DNA of 64,000 nucleotides from Escherichia phage vB_EcoM_LNA2: the sequence record MZ311865.1, one strand, 5' to 3'. Position 1 is the stretch's first letter. Each line of letters opens with the position of its first letter. This document shows, piece by piece, positions 43,681 to 50,232 of this stretch. Below the pieces are notes generated by a model. The model had not been told where the DNA came from. It searched no databases and worked only from the letters and a program-made list of their open reading frames with translations. Both the position numbers and the translations under genes were made by a program.

Positions 43681-44229
43681 TTAACGAGCCCATTTGATAA
43701 TTTCTGTAATCAAATTATTACGTTCGCTTGCATTAAATCCTATAACTTTGTTAGCACCATCATGATTAAGTAATTGATACGTTTGGATTTCGTTATGAAT
43801 TGCAAACTCTTCAAAATATGAAATGACTGTATTAAAACCAAATGAAGACAAAGTAATAAGGTCGTCTTCAAAACTTTCAGTCATTTCGTTACGTGTTAAA
43901 ATAATTGTGAACACATCATGGTTTTGGCAAAGACGAACATAGTCCTGTTCATAAACGTCAAGAACCGAGTCCGCATCTTGTCGAATACGTCCGTAAACCC
44001 AGTTACTAATATATCCACGGTCTAATAGATAAATCTTAGTAGGGTCTAAATAATTCAACATCGTTTCGAAACAGCCAACTTCATTTCGAGACTTAACATC
44101 GAAACGTCCATCAACTGTTCGTTTAGGGAAATCAATCTTTACATATCTTTCACTAATTTCCATTATGTCATTAATGAAAGTTGTTTTACCAGCATTATCT
44201 GGGCCATCTACTAAAATAATTTTAGCCAT
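43681..44229 (-). CDS. P-loop NTPase / small kinase-like protein
   Basis: 182 aa; Walker A LVDGPDNAGKTT at N-terminus; occupies T4 uvsX-beta-gt interval. Confidence 0.5.
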   Translation of the reverse strand: MAKIILVDGPDNAGKTTFINDIMEISERYVKIDFPKRTVDGRFDVKSRNEVGCFETMLNYLDPTKIYLLDRGYISNWVYGRIRQDADSVLDVYEQDYVRLCQNHDVFTIILTRNEMTESFEDDLITLSSFGFNTVISYFEEFAIHNEIQTYQLLNHDGANKVIGFNASERNNLITEIIKWAR

Positions 44230-44230
44230 T

Positions 44231-45130
44231 TTATTCCTCGATTACGACATCTTCATATTTAGGTATATTATACGGTGAAGAAATTAAAGCGTTAAAGTAG
44301 ATGAACTCACCAAGACCTGGATGGAATACTTCTTCAGGATTTTCGAAATATTGAATTTTCGGACGTCCTTTAAGAATTTGATAGTACTCAGTTTTAGTTG
44401 GTTTAAAAATTCGAATCAACGCTTCTTCAGGATACTTATTTCTGTCGAAGCTATTATTTGGATCGGTTATATAAAGCGGTTGACCTAATTGAATTGCGCA
44501 TTCAACAACTTGTTCAAAACGATAGCATGGGTCACTAATTCGAAATGGATGAAAAATACCATCTAGATGAATAGGAGCCAAATCACCTACAAGACGCTGC
44601 ATGATGGAAGGACGTATAACTTTCTGCGTTACGATAATCTTATTACCATCTGCACCAGCGTTAACCAGCACTTCTTTTTGACGTTCATTCAACACAGTAG
44701 TTTGAAGTGAACGATTAACCGACAACATATCGGTTTTTAAGAATTCGTCAATATAAAAACGTGGTTTATTAGGGTCTGCAGTGATATTGAAATTGAATTC
44801 CGCATCAAAAGCGCCGTCATATCCAGTGATATCTGTGATTAGAAAATCACAGTCATAATAAGCAATTAATGAATCAACCACAAATTCATTTTCAGACCAG
44901 AAATATTTACGAGTGTTATACGCGTTATCTTTATACCATAATGGAACAAACTTAAATTCTGGAAAAAGACGTTCGCATTCTTTAATATCAGATGCATTAC
45001 GTGGATATGTAATCACATCACCCGGATTAGCACGGTGCAAATGAAGTTGGAAGTTGCCATCCTTAAGGATAGCATACTGTCCAGTTTCATAAGACCGCAT
45101 ACTCAAGATAGGTACGCGGAAAATAGCCAT
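44231..45130 (-). CDS. hypothetical protein in beta-glucosyltransferase slot
   Basis: 299 aa between uvsX and gene 42 where T4 has beta-gt; no resemblance to recalled T4 beta-gt. Confidence 0.5.
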   Translation of the reverse strand: MAIFRVPILSMRSYETGQYAILKDGNFQLHLHRANPGDVITYPRNASDIKECERLFPEFKFVPLWYKDNAYNTRKYFWSENEFVVDSLIAYYDCDFLITDITGYDGAFDAEFNFNITADPNKPRFYIDEFLKTDMLSVNRSLQTTVLNERQKEVLVNAGADGNKIIVTQKVIRPSIMQRLVGDLAPIHLDGIFHPFRISDPCYRFEQVVECAIQLGQPLYITDPNNSFDRNKYPEEALIRIFKPTKTEYYQILKGRPKIQYFENPEEVFHPGLGEFIYFNALISSPYNIPKYEDVVIEE

Positions 45131-45846
45131 TAGTCAAGGAATCCTTTAACATAATCAAAATCACGTTCAAACACATGGGCACTTACCATGGTATGAGTAT
45201 AATCACCAACTTCTACACCACATTCTTTAGCGATATAATGAAGTAATTTTCCTTGGAGATAAAAATCCAACTGCATAACAACAGCACAGTTCTGAGAACG
45301 CATATGACAGTGGGTATAAAGCTTACCATCACGAATATAATAAGTCACTGAGTCAGTACATGGATATTCAAGTGTTTCGTCCGAATCAAGCAAAGCCTGA
45401 TCAGAACTTTCTAGAATTTGGAACACAACTCTTCGAGAGTTAGGCTTCTCTTTAAGTTCTTTTAGAAGAGCTGGTAATTGGGCCGCAATGCGAGGACCAT
45501 AGAAAGTGTTGAAGTTCGCCGGCAAAACATCTGATTTTGGTTTAGAAATAAATTTAGCGACATTAGGATATGCCTTAAACGCTTCTTCTGCGTTGGTACC
45601 ACCAGAAATCATAAACTTCCAGAAGTCTTCGGCATATTCATAAGAGATGCGGTTAATACGTGGGTCGGTCATTTTGAATGATGATGGAGTGTCAACAACT
45701 ACTGTCATAGACCCAATTTCATTACAACGTCCAATACGAGAATCAGTTACGAATTCCGGGTTTTCTAAAATTTCACGATTGACAGCTTTAAATGCGGATT
45801 GAAAATCTGCGGCTTTAATATATTTCATTGTGTTATGTTTTCCCAT
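45130..45846 (-). CDS. 42: dCMP hydroxymethylase gp42 (thymidylate-synthase fold)
   Basis: 238 aa; YPCTDSVTYYIRDGKLYTHCHMRSQN resembles TS/dCH catalytic-Cys region; conserved position. Confidence 0.75.
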   Translation of the reverse strand: MGKHNTMKYIKAADFQSAFKAVNREILENPEFVTDSRIGRCNEIGSMTVVVDTPSSFKMTDPRINRISYEYAEDFWKFMISGGTNAEEAFKAYPNVAKFISKPKSDVLPANFNTFYGPRIAAQLPALLKELKEKPNSRRVVFQILESSDQALLDSDETLEYPCTDSVTYYIRDGKLYTHCHMRSQNCAVVMQLDFYLQGKLLHYIAKECGVEVGDYTHTMVSAHVFERDFDYVKGFLD

Positions 45847-45978
45847 GTTTACCTCAATACAATTTATTATATACTCAATTCATAAAGCTTATTTGAATTT
45901 CTTAGCGATGTTGATATAACGTAAAGCTTCAGCATCGATATTTCCAAGAACACTATGAAGAAATGCATCAGCGTAGTA

Positions 45979-46128
45979 TTACAGTTGAACAGGTTCTTTA
46001 ATCACTTTAGCCGCTTTAGTTTCAAACAGGCCCATCAGGGCCTTTTTAAGAATTTGTTCGTTAGTGTTCAGTTTCGTAGTCAAAATCTCTTCATTAAGTT
46101 GGTGGTTAAAAGTTTTTCTAGAAATCAT
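45979..46128 (-). CDS. small protein (49 aa) coupled to Cys-rich enzyme gene
   Basis: Hand-translated MISRKTFNHQLNEEILTTKLNTNEQILKKALMGLFETKAAKVIKEPVQL; ATGA overlap with upstream gene. Confidence 0.3.
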   Translation of the reverse strand: MISRKTFNHQLNEEILTTKLNTNEQILKKALMGLFETKAAKVIKEPVQL

Positions 46129-47285
46129 TCCGGGTACCTCAAAGCGTCATCAGAGTTAGTTATATCAATAATAGATATAGAGTTTTCTGATAACCCATTT
46201 TTAGATAACTGACGTTTATAATATCTTTCACAATATGTACACGTTGACCCACAGATTTCATTAGCACAATCGAAATCTGGATGTCTGAACCACCTTTTTT
46301 CTAAAAAGCCATCTAACAAAGAGGTTTCAATATTTACTGTATGTGAAAACTCAGTTTCGTTTTCAAGAGTGAAAATAGTCTCTAAAGGCTTCCACAGTTC
46401 TAACAAATTACCTTCAAACTTTTCAGAAGCGTATGCTTCAAGAACTTTCAAAATGTAGTCTGTGCTACCTGTACGTCCTGAAACTTTGAATTGAGTGATA
46501 CCAATATCATTATAAAGTTTCAAATCTTGAGGACGAACAAAACGAGTTCTCAACCAGTTAAATGGGTCTGTATCACGAGCTTTAATACAGTGCTGCATAG
46601 GATATCCGTTTAAGGATTTAGCATCATCAGCTGTAACATCAGTACTATGGAAAATATAGCAAGAGTCACGATAGCTACAATGTGTTGTATACCCTTTACC
46701 AGCATTAGAACAGAACTCATTTACAAGAACTTCAAATATTATATTGTTCTTATTACAAAACTCTGCTGCACGCTTCAGGAAAGAAACTGAACGGTTCTTA
46801 TGAATTCCACAGCAGACCTTTTTGATATTATATTGGTCGTGCAAGTATTTGATTTGAGTTACAGCATCGACATGTAGAATTGTTGAAACTTCAATCTCAA
46901 TGTCTTTATTGACTTCACGAACAATTTCCATAACAACAGGGTTAGCGATAGTAATACGCCATACGCCTATTGACCAAAGATACTGAACATAATCCTGAAT
47001 AGCTTTCTTCTTCCACTCAACTAGTTCTCTTTTTGAACCAGGATTTATCGTGTTGAGTGTATAGTTAAAGCAAATACCTAATTCGTTACAACGTTTAACG
47101 TAATCTTCTAACATCTTTTTGTCAACGTCAGGAAGCCTAAAATCAGGTCTGGCTGCTACAAAAGCCATTTCTCTTGTAGAGCCGTATACTTCGTTTATCA
47201 AGCTATTAGGATAAGTTTTATTGAGCTCTACGATTTTATCAAGAAGAGCTAAATCAAAATTCGTTCCGATTTTAAAAGTATTCAT
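46125..47285 (-). CDS. Cys-rich enzyme of unknown function (possible Fe-S/metal enzyme) in sugar cassette
   Basis: 386 aa; Cys clusters VCCGIHK, EFCSNAGKGYTTHCSYRDSC, C-terminal DCANEICGSTCTYC (CX3CX2C). Confidence 0.5.
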   Translation of the reverse strand: MNTFKIGTNFDLALLDKIVELNKTYPNSLINEVYGSTREMAFVAARPDFRLPDVDKKMLEDYVKRCNELGICFNYTLNTINPGSKRELVEWKKKAIQDYVQYLWSIGVWRITIANPVVMEIVREVNKDIEIEVSTILHVDAVTQIKYLHDQYNIKKVCCGIHKNRSVSFLKRAAEFCNKNNIIFEVLVNEFCSNAGKGYTTHCSYRDSCYIFHSTDVTADDAKSLNGYPMQHCIKARDTDPFNWLRTRFVRPQDLKLYNDIGITQFKVSGRTGSTDYILKVLEAYASEKFEGNLLELWKPLETIFTLENETEFSHTVNIETSLLDGFLEKRWFRHPDFDCANEICGSTCTYCERYYKRQLSKNGLSENSISIIDITNSDDALRYPE

Positions 47286-47343: not shown

Positions 47344-47745
47344 TTATAGATTCGGTTTATACGATTTAAATGTTTCGAATTCGCCTTTATTCATAAGAGC
47401 TTTGAATTCGTCAGGACGCATAGCTTTGTCGTCGATAATCCAATCATATACTGGTTTATGTGTTAGCAAATTATGGTACTTCAAGCCAATGTTTGCCAAG
47501 TTCTGAATCAGACTTGGGAGAATGTCAATTGCTATACGACCAGGACCTACTGACTTCATACCGCGAGCAGTGTAAAGCGTTATGGTATGCCCTGCATCAT
47601 ACAGAGCATTAATGGCAGACACCATTTCGGTGTCTGGTTTGAAGTTCACGTAATCACGATTGTTATTCCATTCCGTGATGCAATCATCGACATCAAAACA
47701 AAGATTAAGCATGTTTTCTACACGGTGCATTAGATTCGTTCCCAT
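47344..47745 (-). CDS. HAD-superfamily phosphatase (KdsC-like)
   Basis: 133 aa; motif I FDVDDCIT, motif II ITLYTARG, motif IV WIIDDK. Confidence 0.6.
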   Translation of the reverse strand: MGTNLMHRVENMLNLCFDVDDCITEWNNNRDYVNFKPDTEMVSAINALYDAGHTITLYTARGMKSVGPGRIAIDILPSLIQNLANIGLKYHNLLTHKPVYDWIIDDKAMRPDEFKALMNKGEFETFKSYKPNL

Positions 47746-49415
47746 TGATGAGTGATATCGCCACCGATTGGACGATAGGAAACACCAGTTTCTTTATCAG
47801 TTAGTACCCATTTACCAGGATTTTTTGTAATCAGAGTAGCCGTTACAGGTTCTGCTACGTCATAACTAATAGAGCCGTCTTGAAGTACACGGCCCATATT
47901 ACGTAATTGCTTAGTCAGAAGTTCCATACCTTTATAATATGCGGCTACCGCTTTAAGTGGATTATTCTTGAAATAACCACCTAATGCAATCCAGATAATT
48001 GCTACAGCCAAATGATGATACTCGTTAAACGAACTCATCTTTCCATATTTGTAAACTAGTGGATTGATGTTAATAGTCACATTACAAGTTGTTTCGTCAA
48101 TAGTAAACTGTCCCCAGGTCGGATTAGCGTTGAATTCATCATAACCTGAAACAGCATAAAGCACTTTAGCTTCATCGTACAATTTTGGCCCGTAAATCTT
48201 GGTTTCACCAAAATATCCACGAGGGTCGATAAACTTGACTTCGCCGTTATCAGTAATCATAGTATTACTGAAGTTCGGGTCGCCGTGAATAACAGAGTAC
48301 TGTCCCTGAGAACGGTTATGATAACGAATAAGGTGTTCTAAAGCTTGTTTCAGCATTGGCTTCAGACGTCCAATCTTAGTGTAGTTCACATGTGTGATTT
48401 TACCAAATGAATCAATCAATGGTTGAATGCTTTCACAACGATCAATAACTTTCGTATAGAATTCTTTAGTGAAATCACGACGAACAGTTTCAGGACTTAC
48501 AAAATAAGTGTCTGTGCTGAATTTCAGTGCATCTAAAATTGCACCAACAATTTGTGGACGAGCAAGACTTGATTTGGATTTAATATATTCAAATGCCGGC
48601 TTACCTTTAATGCGTTCCATTTCAAAGTTATTTTCATTAACAGAAACTAACTGAGGGACTGAATCTGATTTCACTTTAAGATACCATGAAATCTCATCTT
48701 TCTGAAGAGCTCGACCCTGTTCGGTTAATGCGAATTTAGTTACAGTTTCTTCACCAATTTCAACTGCATTAAAACTACGATTAAGTTCACGAACTTCATG
48801 AGCTTTTTCAAGTTTAGGCATATCACCTAAATCAATTAGATTCATAAGCTCTGATTTATTGAATGTGCTGCCGTAAAGGAATTCTACGAAATCACGTCCT
48901 TTGCAGTATTCATGAATTTCCTCATCAGTAGAACCCATATAGAATTCCCAGTCTTTGAACTGATAAATTCCTACAACATTACCACCTGTTGAACCTACGT
49001 TAGTGATATTTTCACCGTCGAAATTATATCGACATTCGTCACCCTTAACATAGATTGCGTTAACATTCCAAGACCATGAACCAAAATCGGGAATAATATC
49101 ACACCAGTTAACAATTACGTTATGGCCGTCTAAATCTTTGTGTAATTTAGCAAGAGCATAAGCAGAACCATACGCTTCATCAACTGTACGAATAGTCACA
49201 TTGAACTCTTCTTGCTCACAATAAGCTCGAACAGTTTCAGCAAATTTTGAATGAACTACTACAATAATTTCATCTGCGCCAAGGTCAGAATAAATTGTAT
49301 ACAAATTGCTCAGAATAGTGTCTTGTTTATAGTTAACAAGCACCTTAGGAATATGATGCGTTATTGGATACAAACGAGTTGCTAATCCAGCACCAAGAAT
49401 AACAGCTTTTTTCAT
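47730..49415 (-). CDS. bifunctional sugar-1-phosphate nucleotidyltransferase / anomeric sugar kinase
   Basis: 561 aa; N-term KAVILGAGLATRLYPIT (RmlA/GalU-type); C-term VIHGDPNFSNTMI...FIDPRG (APH/choline-kinase-like catalytic loop). Confidence 0.65.
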   Translation of the reverse strand: MKKAVILGAGLATRLYPITHHIPKVLVNYKQDTILSNLYTIYSDLGADEIIVVVHSKFAETVRAYCEQEEFNVTIRTVDEAYGSAYALAKLHKDLDGHNVIVNWCDIIPDFGSWSWNVNAIYVKGDECRYNFDGENITNVGSTGGNVVGIYQFKDWEFYMGSTDEEIHEYCKGRDFVEFLYGSTFNKSELMNLIDLGDMPKLEKAHEVRELNRSFNAVEIGEETVTKFALTEQGRALQKDEISWYLKVKSDSVPQLVSVNENNFEMERIKGKPAFEYIKSKSSLARPQIVGAILDALKFSTDTYFVSPETVRRDFTKEFYTKVIDRCESIQPLIDSFGKITHVNYTKIGRLKPMLKQALEHLIRYHNRSQGQYSVIHGDPNFSNTMITDNGEVKFIDPRGYFGETKIYGPKLYDEAKVLYAVSGYDEFNANPTWGQFTIDETTCNVTININPLVYKYGKMSSFNEYHHLAVAIIWIALGGYFKNNPLKAVAAYYKGMELLTKQLRNMGRVLQDGSISYDVAEPVTATLITKNPGKWVLTDKETGVSYRPIGGDITHQWERI

Positions 49416-49456: not shown

Positions 49457-49600
49457 CTAGTTAAAGCATTCATACTTTGCTTGTAGTCCAATCATAATCC
49501 ATCCAATTACAAGTGTTGGAATCATTACTGGAGCCGTTAAGCTCCAGTAGATAGTCATGGCAAGCATCAATAGTAAAAGTCCTATTGTTATTGCTTTCAT
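49457..49600 (-). CDS. small membrane protein (47 aa) inside sugar cassette
   Basis: Hand-translated MKAITIGLLLLMLAMTIYWSLTAPVMIPTLVIGWIMIGLQAKYECFN; start overlaps SIS gene stop. Confidence 0.3.
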   Translation of the reverse strand: MKAITIGLLLLMLAMTIYWSLTAPVMIPTLVIGWIMIGLQAKYECFN

Positions 49601-50232
49601 TGTTCGCCTCGTAACATGGCACCTAGTGCACCGCCTGGATGGAACTTAAGGAAGTCATTAGAGGTAAATCCACGTTCAGACGAAAGGTTGATAGCAAACG
49701 TATCGATAAGCGCTAACAACAATGTAGTGGACATAGTCGGAGCCAGAGAATTCTCATCAACCTCTACCGCGATGCCTGTACAGAAAGAGTAATCAAAAAG
49801 GGCTTCATTTTCTTGTGGAATGTCTGGGTTACAATGCAACAGAATCTGTTTGACGTTCGGTCGAATCATTTTAAGATGCTTAGCCACGCCTATCATTTCT
49901 TCAGTTTTACCAGAACGACTAATATGAATCAACACATCATTAGGCGCAATGAATCCTGCATCACCGTGAGAATAATGCCCAGTGTTCAAGTACATACTCG
50001 GGATACCGAGTGAAGCAAATGTCTCAGAAGCTTTAGTTGCAATATTAGCATTCTTACCAACACCTGTAATAATTACTCGGCTTTCATAATTACTAAGTCC
50101 CGGGCGTCGAAGAGTTTCTAGAATAGCATTATAACGAGCAGGGTTTTGACTAATTACTTTGGCCATAGCGGCCAAAGAAGAAGCTTGTTTTATGATTGCG
50201 TCAATAGCGATAGTAATAGGAGTAGTTTTCAT
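49597..50232 (-). CDS. SIS-domain sugar-phosphate isomerase (KdsD/GutQ-like arabinose-5-phosphate isomerase, no CBS domains)
   Basis: 211 aa; VIITGVGKNANIATKASETFASLG...LIHISRSGKTEE resembles SIS domain of API. Confidence 0.65.
   Translation of the reverse strand: MKTTPITIAIDAIIKQASSLAAMAKVISQNPARYNAILETLRRPGLSNYESRVIITGVGKNANIATKASETFASLGIPSMYLNTGHYSHGDAGFIAPNDVLIHISRSGKTEEMIGVAKHLKMIRPNVKQILLHCNPDIPQENEALFDYSFCTGIAVEVDENSLAPTMSTTLLLALIDTFAINLSSERGFTSNDFLKFHPGGALGAMLRGEQ

Follow-up and report, generated by a model that had tools for sequence, protein, structure and literature searches.

A phage-encoded U32-family protein as a candidate oxygen-independent cytosine C5 hydroxylase in an RB69-type phage

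Prephenate-dependent hydroxylation by proteins of the U32 family has been described for RNA and for quinones. RlhA (YdcP), the 23S rRNA 5-hydroxycytidine-2501 synthase of E. coli, converts cytosine C5-H into C5-OH and depends on Fe-S biogenesis as well as on prephenate, which PheA/TyrA provide through their chorismate mutase activity. The tRNA modification ho5U34 is produced by the prephenate-dependent U32 protein TrhP in parallel to the unrelated, O2-dependent TrhO; the TrhO-type enzyme is missing from obligate anaerobes, while facultative anaerobes have both (PMC6599085). In UbiU-UbiV, the anaerobic counterpart of the flavin/O2 hydroxylases of ubiquinone, [4Fe-4S] clusters have been proven spectroscopically, and 18O labelling has identified prephenate as the oxygen donor. 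So far none of the U32 hydroxylases has been assayed in vitro or reconstituted (PMC10990095), so that the chemistry of the family is still deduced from genetics.

In RB69-type phages cytosine is wholly replaced, the DNA base being 5-hydroxycytosine and not hmC (PMC13326640). The 5-hydroxy-dCMP synthase function has been proven experimentally for RB69 gp48, which strictly uses O2 according to 18O2 labelling (PMC13326640). A published group stated that it had "no valid hypothesis" on the origin of the hydroxyl (PMC12838424). Here we report on gp50, encoded in the same cassette of an RB69-type Mosigvirus, Escherichia phage vB_EcoM_LNA2 (MZ311865.1), of which a stretch of 64,000 nucleotides (the window) was analysed. 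We propose, with a probability of roughly 0.6, that gp50 is an O2-independent, prephenate-dependent cytosine C5 hydroxylase that would back up the O2-dependent gp48. A literature search, in which coverage of recent papers was incomplete, found no earlier proposal of an anaerobic hydroxylase role for this protein.

The gp50 gene and its cassette

The gp50 gene (RB69ORF050c homolog, Peptidase_U32 family) is located at 46125..47285 on the minus strand, and its verified codons encode 386 aa from an ATG start, as the first-pass annotation had described; the three cysteine-containing strings quoted there are all found in the translation. The gene had also been assigned to a sugar cassette, which is borne out, as it lies in an arabinose/DNA-modification cassette flanked by the genes for DNA polymerase (gp43) and uvsX. 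Among Mosigvirus phages gp50 is under strong purifying selection, with 24-29 nucleotide changes against one amino acid change. Genes of this type have historically been annotated as "peptidase U32 / collagenase". The record of phage ChristianSchoenbein lists a "putative enzyme involved in UDP-arabinose biosynthesis", and the RB69ORF050c-type gene is labelled "sugar or heterocycle reductase" in Table 1 of PMC13326640.

The surrounding genes are likewise on the minus strand. They comprise gp45, a Tmk-like nucleotide kinase (43681..44229), gp46:47, the DNA arabinosyltransferase 1 (44231..45130, one intact ORF here; PMC13326640 Table 1), and gp48, the flavin- and O2-dependent ThyA-homolog 5-hydroxy-dCMP synthase (45130..45846; Pfam Thymidylat_synt), whose sequence carries the D169N and N177D signature "HMRSQNCAVVMQLD". 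They further include gp51, an AfhF-like HAD phosphatase (47344..47745), gp52:53, an AfhE-like bifunctional sugar kinase/nucleotidyltransferase (47730..49415, again one intact ORF), and gp55, an arabinose-5-phosphate isomerase with a SIS domain (49597..50232). Since the DNA base of these phages is 5-hydroxycytosine, a U32 hydroxylase would be meaningful in this setting.

Between the U32 gene and the ThyA homolog there is a slot (45867..46128, minus strand) that holds a chorismate mutase gene in most other genera. In the window it holds a 49-aa ORF (45979-46128, minus strand), a homolog of PM2_045/TG1_051 that is interrupted by an in-frame TAA. A decayed chorismate mutase was ruled out, as the phage chorismate mutase HMM scored at most 2 bits across 45847-46128 and CM_2 of Pfam gave no match there. 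Chorismate mutase has been lost from this lineage, which would therefore depend on the host PheA/TyrA for prephenate.

Family, fold and conserved cysteines of gp50

Residues 94-286 of gp50 score 42.2 bits (E=7.3e-11) with PF01136 (Peptidase_U32), for which the gathering cut-off is 22.4, in line with the loose U32-peptidase-like resemblance noticed earlier in the N-terminal region. A U32 domain is also precomputed on gp50 homologs. Fold searches place the protein in the TIM-barrel-like U32 fold; the only solved U32 structure among their matches was Mk0906 (PDB 5d88), with 14% identity, and a direct search of the PDB with the gp50 sequence returned no matches. When gp50 was aligned with characterised U32 proteins using hhalign, RlhA was the best match (E=4e-5 over 195 columns), followed by TrhP (3e-3) and UbiU (0.014). 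Among the NCBIfam equivalogs UbiU, UbiV, RlhA and TrhP, gp50 matched UbiU alone, and its 18.5 bits fall well short of the cut-off of 440. Being so far below that cut-off, gp50 belongs to a distinct U32 subfamily, which comprises 722 clusters at E<=1e-10 with a typical length of about 360 aa.

Cysteine conservation in gp50 is far above chance. Ten cysteines (C158, C177, C192, C203, C209, C233, C340, C345, C349 and C352) are invariant in 32 homologs with 46-88% identity, and eight of these positions persist as potential ligands down to 25% identity. In 54 representatives with 25-50% identity, C192 was retained in 53 and C203 and C233 in all 54, while position 209 was occupied by Cys (38), His (15) or Asp (1), an exchange of Cys and His that looks like the conservation of a ligand. 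At the C-terminus, C340, C345 and C349 were each retained in 53/54 and C352 in 54/54. Conservation of C158 (36/54) and C177 (10/54) is confined to the closer clade, and C159, C66 and C72 are not conserved. The first-pass annotation had regarded its cysteine clusters as conserved; this holds for the two four-ligand sites described below, but in "CCGIHK" C159 varies and C158 is restricted to the closer clade. The reported C-terminal CX3CX2C is present, but as part of a longer motif of four cysteines, CX4CX3CX2C.

Putative metal site 1 (C192-X10-C203-X5-C209-X23-C233; 46587..46712, minus strand, codons verified) is located inside the U32 domain and is presumed to be a [4Fe-4S] site equivalent to the cluster ligands of RlhA and UbiU. 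C203 and C209 of gp50 align to the essential C169 and C176 of RlhA, and a C-Y-x-x-H motif then follows in both proteins. Comparison by eye indicates that "GYPMQHC233IKAR" of gp50 resembles "GYPTLC232KGR" of UbiU, in which C232 is a proven cluster ligand (PMC6747719). The spacing CX10CX5CX23C departs from both the canonical U32 pattern (CX6CX15CX3/4C) and that of UbiU (CX6CX16CX38C). Putative metal site 2 (C340-X4-C345-X3-C349-X2-C352; 46230..46268, minus strand, codons verified) may hold an auxiliary Fe-S cluster or zinc, of which we favour the former; RlhA, too, needs C-terminal cysteines (Cys580/Cys611) besides those of its U32 motif (PMC5727448). We take gp50 to have two metal sites, probably both of the [4Fe-4S] type.

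Linkage to prephenate supply and cassettes lacking a gp48-type enzyme

Three independent arrangements tie U32 genes to genes for the supply of prephenate. In 55 T4-like phage records, covering at least 12 host genera, the neighbour of U32 is an AroQ chorismate mutase (CM_2, E=2e-10), the enzyme that forms prephenate; it mostly lies between U32 and the ThyA homolog and is often translationally coupled. In Thanatos the U32-chorismate mutase pair is found elsewhere in the cassette and is still adjacent; this phage was considered as a T4-like case with U32 only, which was ruled out when its ThyA homolog TH1_062 was found. In Kanagawavirus the two genes are either both present or both missing. Stand-alone chorismate mutases (CM_2, E~1e-14) follow the U32 stop codon in six jumbo-phage contigs, and in seven further loci U32 is adjoined by DAHP synthase-chorismate mutase fusions (CM_2 down to 2e-24) or by DAHP synthase alone (NCBIfam 3e-70), partners that are also present beside U32 in MAG contigs of Gastranaerophilaceae and Clostridium. 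In total, chorismate mutase, DAHP synthase or their fusion is found beside U32 in 13 of the 38 distant loci and in five of the 10 genome/MAG loci. It was also considered whether the DAHP synthase-family neighbour could be a KDO8P synthase using arabinose-5-P, which was rejected on the basis of the profile scores (DAHPS 3e-70, KDO8PS 3e-17) and of the chorismate mutase domain fused to it in five loci. One chorismate mutase match outside the U32 phages, on the faecal scaffold MT836175, was weak, fell on a larger fusion protein and had no U32 gene in its surroundings, so that it was set aside as irrelevant.

The distant loci (38 loci, 652 kb) were surveyed over 10 kb on either side of the U32 gene. 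A gp48-type ThyA hydroxylase was present in 0/38 of them within this distance, compared with 21/21 T4-like loci, and as only these surroundings were covered a gp48-type gene may lie elsewhere on the distant genomes. The lone "ThyA" match (locus L038) was a canonical thymidylate synthase, with 243 bits to Pfam, and was excluded as a gp48-type enzyme. These cassettes do contain a gp46:47-like glycosyltransferase (24/38), an NTP-transferase/kinase (17/38) and a SIS isomerase (10/38), and Tmk-like kinases co-occur in them with U32. Without a gp48-type enzyme in the cassette the hydroxyl would need another source, and the U32 protein is the conserved candidate.

Host physiology was compared using phage records that are phylogenetically non-independent. 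Of the records with a gp48-type enzyme, all 58 from the strictly aerobic hosts Acinetobacter and Pseudomonas lack U32; among the other 287, almost all of which have Enterobacterales or Shewanella hosts, about 221 carry it. About 65 enterobacterial phage records have gp48 without U32; a perfect correlation with aerobic or anaerobic life was ruled out by enteric phages such as Dhakavirus KIT01 and Kanagawavirus IME523, which lack the U32-chorismate mutase module. Five of the 10 U32-bearing MAG/genome contigs are named Romboutsia, Clostridium, Phocaeicola, Erysipelotrichales and Gastranaerophilaceae, which are strictly anaerobic taxa.

Proposed role, alternatives and comparison with known systems

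In the proposed pathway gp50 would hydroxylate cytosine at C5, probably as dCMP to give 5-hydroxy-dCMP, with prephenate donating the oxygen and leaving as phenylpyruvate and CO2. From there the route would be the one already known, with the product passed on by the Tmk-like/dNMP kinase and NDP kinase to the DNA polymerase and arabinosylation taking place on the DNA. In an anoxic setting such as the gut gp48 could not work, and gp50 would allow arabinosyl-5-hydroxycytosine DNA to be made. The demand for prephenate is roughly estimated at 10^7 molecules per burst. By extension, the large and mostly viral U32 subfamily may supply the route, missing until now, by which 5-hydroxypyrimidine DNA is formed without oxygen, a wider proposal to which we give about an even chance. 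In phages of strict anaerobes, genomes with glycosylated 5-hydroxycytosine (or 5-hydroxyuracil) would depend on U32 as their sole hydroxylase; where the host is a facultative anaerobe, U32 and chorismate mutase would form an accessory two-gene module beside the O2/flavin ThyA-type enzyme of the phage; and in some phages DAHP synthase-chorismate mutase fusions would rewire host shikimate flux towards stoichiometric prephenate.

If true, gp50 would complete the biosynthesis of the newly described arabinosyl-5-hydroxycytosine DNA hypermodification, and would explain how gut phages with full cytosine replacement replicate without O2 when their sole proven hydroxylase needs it. Prephenate-dependent hydroxylation, described for RNA and quinones, would reach DNA precursors and viruses as well, and DAHP synthase and chorismate mutase would be given a definite purpose as auxiliary metabolic genes of phages. 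Because the substrate of gp50 would be a soluble mononucleotide, a first in vitro reconstitution of U32/prephenate chemistry could be possible, for which a small single-chain protein would be an attractive model. The fitness of Mosigvirus-type phage-therapy candidates in anoxic infection sites may vary with the U32 module, and gp50 could serve for the anaerobic production of 5hoC-DNA.

The same chemistry could be performed at another level, on cytosine in polymerised DNA (or on dCTP/dCDP) and not on dCMP, as the nearest characterised relatives, RlhA and TrhP, work on polynucleotides. We regard this as unlikely. A dedicated Tmk-like kinase accompanies U32 even in cassettes without a ThyA-type enzyme, where it would be pointless unless a modified dNMP were formed, and genes of the dCMP-deaminase family and for dUTPase/DCD are frequent near U32. 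T4-type phages reach complete cytosine replacement via control of the nucleotide pool. In RB69-type phages the replacement is complete (PMC13326640).

A role in the sugar pathway, with gp50 tailoring or reducing the activated pentose, would be in line with the position of its gene in an arabinose cassette, where the phosphatase lies on one side and the ThyA homolog on the other, with the reductase and UDP-arabinose labels cited above (PMC13326640 Table 1; ChristianSchoenbein record), and with the NTP-transferase/kinase, SIS isomerase and HAD phosphatase genes that often accompany distant homologs, a co-occurrence that leaves room for such a role. Action on the sugar, which had been suggested in the first-pass annotation, nevertheless appears improbable. 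U32 is missing from 57 Acinetobacter phage records and from Pseudomonas phage PspYZU05 although they carry the isomerase marker of the arabinose pathway, and the two U32-less cassettes that were inspected hold the complete set of isomerase, kinase-transferase, phosphatase and glycosyltransferase. Three characterised Afh-type enzymes already cover the route from Ru5P to UDP-Araf, some U32 homologs are located beside dCMP deaminase, Pol III alpha, NT5C or dNK with no sugar genes nearby, and the linkage to chorismate mutase and DAHP synthase would be left unexplained. To our knowledge, no U32 protein acts on a sugar. Moreover, experiments have established that DLP3 modifies its DNA with tri-arabinosyl-5hoC without U32 (PMC13326640).

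It is very unlikely that gp50 is an RNA hydroxylase, analogous to TrhP or RlhA, that forms ho5U34 or ho5C on host or phage tRNA/rRNA and so tunes translation during infection. RNA is the substrate of all characterised nucleic-acid U32 enzymes, and T4-like phages encode tRNAs, but gp50 is no equivalog of TrhP, RlhA or UbiU by its NCBIfam scores and has neither the DUF3656 of RlhA nor the C-terminal domains of TrhP. Furthermore, U32 genes are embedded in DNA-modification cassettes of very different phage lineages, often with overlapping stop and start codons, and the gp50 type is restricted to phages with a 5hoC-type cassette. That gp50 is radical-SAM-like, or truly a protease of the collagenase type, as the CX3CX2C spacing and the historical annotation might imply, can be dismissed almost entirely, since four C-terminal cysteines are conserved where radical SAM uses three, neither a Radical_SAM (PF04055) match in Pfam nor a radical-SAM fold among the top structural matches was found, and the U32 family has no known protease catalytic mechanism, the characterised members considered here being hydroxylation factors (PMC10990095).

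The reading of gp50 as a prephenate-dependent cytosine hydroxylase is closest to RlhA, which belongs to the same Pfam family, gave the best profile match and catalyses the very reaction proposed here. Like gp50 with its two conserved cysteine groups, RlhA has essential cysteines both in the U32 motif and at the C-terminus, and the C-Y-x-x-H motif follows the second cysteine in both. RlhA differs in its length (653 aa), its DUF3656, its CX6CX15CX3C pattern and its substrate, a ribosomal assembly intermediate, whereas the phage-encoded gp50 has 386 aa, CX10CX5CX23C with a compact CX4CX3CX2C tail, and a place in a DNA-precursor cassette. Mk0906 (247 aa) has no counterpart of the C-terminal extension that bears site 2. 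The ThyA-homolog 5hodCMP synthases (gp48, DLP3 gp80 and the HY126 hydroxylase) have the product proposed for gp50 and share its pathway and operon, but differ in their thymidylate synthase fold, flavin cofactor and obligatory O2, and the activity of gp48 is proven whereas that of gp50 is predicted.

The UbiU-UbiV complex holds two clusters, of which gp50 may hold an equal number in a single chain; the former is a heterodimer that works with the UbiT carrier and has a lipid quinone as its substrate, while gp50 is a single polypeptide that presumably acts on a soluble nucleotide. TrhP and TrhO, which act on tRNA uridine, differ in that the O2 partner is a rhodanese and not a flavin-binding ThyA homolog and in that TrhP has one four-Cys motif, yet they make the same 5-hydroxypyrimidine by the logic proposed for gp50 and gp48, and their distribution is paralleled by that of the phage enzymes, with gp48-type only, gp48 and U32, or U32 only. 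The gp48/gp50 pair would thus stand beside two known dual pathways, UbiI/H/F (O2) with UbiU/V (prephenate) and TrhO (O2) with TrhP (prephenate).

Conserved cysteines of gp50

The window originates from an RB69-like Mosigvirus, in which the U32-family gene gp50 is an ORF of 386 aa (46125-47285, minus strand) with 99.2% nucleotide identity to RB69ORF050c; the ORF and every cysteine string quoted in the first-pass annotation were present as described. Full-length copies were identified in 221 phage records. The gene is part of a minus-strand cassette that comprises, in order, DNA polymerase gp43, a SIS arabinose-5-P isomerase (gp55), an NTP-transferase/kinase (gp52:53, 47730-49415), a HAD phosphatase (gp51), gp50, a small ORF, the ThyA homolog (gp48), a glycosyltransferase (gp46:47, 44231-45130), a Tmk-like kinase (gp45) and uvsX. 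In the window, neither gp52:53 (561 aa) nor gp46:47 (299 aa) is interrupted, each being read as one ORF; this matches the published view that a sequencing error accounts for the split form annotated for both in the RB69 reference genome. gp50 is under strong purifying selection: the copies in TH12 and TU01 depart from that of the window at 2.1-2.5% of nucleotides and at only one amino acid (dN/dS ~0.01).

RB69 DNA has been reported to contain arabinosylated 5-hydroxycytosine (5hoC), not hmC, in a 2026 NAR paper (PMC13326640), in which gp48 was shown to form 5-hydroxy-dCMP with flavin and O2 (18O2 labelling) and arabinosylation to take place on DNA. There, gp50 occupies a single line of Table 1 (‘Sugar or heterocycle reductase’, best hit 5d88), and the Discussion covers RNA hydroxylation pathways and makes no tie to gp50. 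Neither its family nor its function is mentioned in the original RB69, Durham-collection and Thanatos papers.

gp50 has a U32 fold. Equivalog identity with UbiU, UbiV, RlhA or TrhP was rejected (best NCBIfam score 18.5 bits, where 440 is required); when the gp50 family profile was aligned with these four E. coli proteins using hhalign, RlhA scored best (E=4e-5, 195 columns), followed by TrhP (3e-3) and UbiU (0.014), while UbiV gave no match. RlhA is the 23S rRNA 5-hydroxycytidine synthase, which requires prephenate and Fe-S biogenesis, Cys169 and Cys176 in the U32 motif, and C-terminal Cys580 and Cys611 (PMC5727448). Its C169/C176 align with gp50 C203/C209, and the same C-Y-x-x-H motif then occurs in both. 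Similarly, GYPTLCKGR around the proven UbiU ligand C232 (PMC6747719) resembles GYPMQHCIKAR around gp50 C233.

Ten cysteines are invariant across 32 gp50 homologs of 46-88% identity. In an exhaustive search the subfamily came to 1186 clusters under a threshold of E<=1e-3, of which 722 also passed E<=1e-10; most are ~350-370 aa long. Conservation was also evaluated in 54 representatives of 25-50% identity. Judged from the alignment, the conserved cysteines probably form two four-ligand sites: site 1 with C192 (53/54), C203 and C233 (both 54/54) and position 209, which is Cys in 38, His in 15 and Asp in one representative, a Cys/His swap as is typical of metal ligands; and site 2 with C340, C345 and C349 (each 53/54) and C352 (54/54). 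C158 and C177 are retained in closer relatives only; C159, C66 and C72 show no conservation. Non-conservation of the cysteines, which would have refuted the first-pass reading, is thus not what the homologs show. The resemblance to radical-SAM enzymes that had also been suggested is superficial, since no Radical_SAM signal was detected and the conserved C-terminal cysteines number four, not three.

Genomic coupling to prephenate supply

Chorismate mutase (CM) produces prephenate, and DAHP synthase (DAHPS) catalyses the entry step of the pathway leading to it. The gp50 family is genomically coupled to this supply. Entb_45, an Enterobacter phage, encodes an AroQ CM of 79 aa (Pfam CM_2, E=2.4e-10) between U32 and the ThyA homolog, with a 4-nt overlap with each gene. 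As a tblastn query it retrieved 56 phage records (hosts Klebsiella, Serratia, Yersinia, Enterobacter, Edwardsiella, Erwinia, Proteus, Pectobacterium, Shewanella, Providencia, Morganella, Kosakonia, Escherichia and Shigella), and in 55 of these CM and U32 share a cassette; the 56th is a weak, irrelevant match. U32 and CM move together as a module: in Thanatos, a Shewanella phage, the pair follows the Tmk-like gene instead of preceding the ThyA homolog, and Kanagawavirus phages have either both genes (Entb_45, CIP9) or neither (IME523), a clean two-gene indel. This indel is flanked by the phosphatase gene and the ThyA-homolog gene (locus L001 5560-8092 in Entb_45, L081 5637-6693 in IME523), and these two phages of one genus offer a natural isogenic-like pair for testing module function.

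In an unbiased neighbour analysis, all ORFs within +/-6 kb of U32 were clustered for 38 distant loci (U32 homologs of 40-55% identity, carried by contigs of viral or metagenomic origin, the longest 466 kb). DAHPS adjoins U32 in seven of them and is fused to CM in five of the seven (CM_2 E=1e-9 to 2e-24). Fusion genes next to U32 on phage or MAG contigs are L047 8411-9433, L050 7302-8357, L051 8332-9387, L061 11079-12197 and L072 6922-7956. Such phage fusions would be shikimate-pathway auxiliary metabolic genes, and no example in phages came up in the literature searched for links of phage U32, CM or prephenate with DNA hydroxylation. Assignment of this neighbour as KDO8P synthase was discarded (NCBIfam 3e-17, vs 3e-70 for DAHPS). 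In six jumbo-phage contigs, a stand-alone CM (CM_2 E~1e-14) comes directly after the U32 stop codon.

No CM signal was found in the slot after gp50 (45847-46128) of the window. The 49-aa ORF in this slot (45979-46128) and the next in-frame segment, together covering 45867-46128 (minus strand), are homologous to a 57-65-aa ORF between U32 and CM in phages PM2 and TG1; it is split in the window by an in-frame TAA, only 40 aa are annotated in HY126, and it looks like a gene in decay. The adjacent CM is wholly deleted in the Mosigvirus lineage, and it is likewise missing from a Klebsiella phage whose U32 is 89% identical. In E. coli, prephenate is supplied by PheA/TyrA (PMC10990095).

Host distribution, and cassettes lacking the O2-dependent hydroxylase

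The arabinose-5-P isomerase marker was found in 57 Acinetobacter phage records and in Pseudomonas phage PspYZU05, all absent from the U32 search results; in their cassettes the phosphatase runs straight to the ThyA homolog. For DLP3, a phage with this type of cassette, production of tri-arabinosyl-5hoC has been demonstrated by experiment (PMC13326640), so the sugar chemistry can proceed without U32. Action on the sugar, named at first pass as a possibility, is not supported, nor is the radical-SAM part of that reading; its supported part is the likeness to Fe-S proteins of the U32 family. Of the 345 gp48-type records, ~287 come from hosts outside Acinetobacter and Pseudomonas, nearly always Enterobacterales or Shewanella, and U32 occurs in 221 of these vs 0/58 Acinetobacter/Pseudomonas records (naive Fisher p = 3e-31, for records that are not phylogenetically independent). 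About 65 enterobacterial gp48-type records lack U32, as confirmed for KIT01 and IME523.

A gp48-type profile built from nine enzymes matched 21/21 T4-like loci and, among the 38 distant loci (loci, not whole genomes), gave one weak match only, to a canonical thymidylate synthase. These loci nevertheless contain gp46:47-type glycosyltransferases (24/38), NTP-transferase/kinases (17/38), SIS isomerases (10/38), HAD-type phosphatases and Tmk-like kinases. U32 fills the hydroxylase position in cassettes without a ThyA-type enzyme, and within these loci it is the only candidate for the hydroxyl source. Other family members have dCMP-deaminase-family genes, dUTPase/DCD, ThyX, UDG and Pol III alpha as neighbours; the combination of nucleotide-metabolism and glycosyltransferase genes ties the family to deoxypyrimidine metabolism and DNA glycosylation.

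Several loci depart from the RB69 arrangement. In L010 (5474-13179), U32 overlaps a GT-like gene upstream and a TAGT-type DNA glycosyltransferase downstream, followed by dUTPase/DCD and UDP-galactopyranose mutase genes with no ThyA-type gene in view, an arrangement suggestive of an uncultured phage with a galactofuranosylated 5-hydroxypyrimidine. In L006 (7447-9086) and L011 (6504-8083), U32 is immediately preceded by a dCMP-deaminase-family gene, which overlaps it in L006; Pol III alpha, UDG and SSB are encoded on the same very large contigs, whose length reaches 466 kb. Here either dUMP or dCMP could be the substrate, and 5-hydroxyuracil, not 5hoC, could be the product. A different nucleotide cassette, seen in L007 (8001-15428), L008 and L070, one contig being binned as a Bacillota MAG, may be a candidate for another base-modification route: besides U32, L007 contains an NT5C nucleotidase, a PnuC-type transporter, a deoxynucleoside kinase, a nucleoside 2-deoxyribosyltransferase, a radical-SAM/SPASM protein and a second, far more divergent U32 (377 aa, weak TrhP match).

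A scan of 185,579 species genomes located the subfamily on 10 contigs, attributed to Romboutsia (two contigs), Clostridium, a Phocaeicola faecalis isolate, Erysipelotrichales, Gastranaerophilaceae, an unclassified Bacillota MAG, Planctomycetota, BRC1 and Woesearchaeota, many of which are strict anaerobes. On these contigs, too, CM or DAHPS-CM is accompanied by GT, kinase and sugar genes, and a ThyA-type match was obtained on none of the 10. The 44%-identical homolog of P. faecalis FXJYN30E22 (L077 6049-7134; scaffold 17, 102 kb) comes from the assembly of a cultured strict anaerobe, a potentially tractable U32-only element whose base composition is measurable.

Proposed function of gp50

We propose, with a probability of roughly 0.6, that gp50 is an O2-independent, prephenate-dependent cytosine-C5 hydroxylase. 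The gene itself was already known and annotated; the function is new as far as the literature examined extends, since no proposal tying phage U32, CM or prephenate to DNA hydroxylation was found in full-text sources, in which subscription papers are partly covered. As in UbiU/UbiV, the active site would contain a [4Fe-4S] cluster, bound by site 1, and site 2 would hold a second cluster, or Zn, relaying electrons to an acceptor. dCMP would be oxidised at C5 and then quenched by hydroxide from the decarboxylative aromatisation of prephenate, a scheme put forward in PMC10990095, and the resulting 5hodCMP would enter the known kinase, polymerase and arabinosyltransferase route. Prephenate demand could be considerable (~6e4 cytosines per genome x burst size, a rough estimate), and such stoichiometric use would rationalise phage-encoded CM and DAHPS.

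Prephenate has been established, genetically and isotopically, as O donor or requirement in the characterised U32 hydroxylation systems (PMC10990095, PMC5727448, PMC6599085), of which gp50 would, if the proposal is true, be a virus-borne variant. UbiU-UbiV is a two-cluster dimer, whereas gp50 would be its single-chain equivalent, and the phage pattern of O2 enzyme only, both, or U32 only mirrors the published distribution of TrhO and TrhP.
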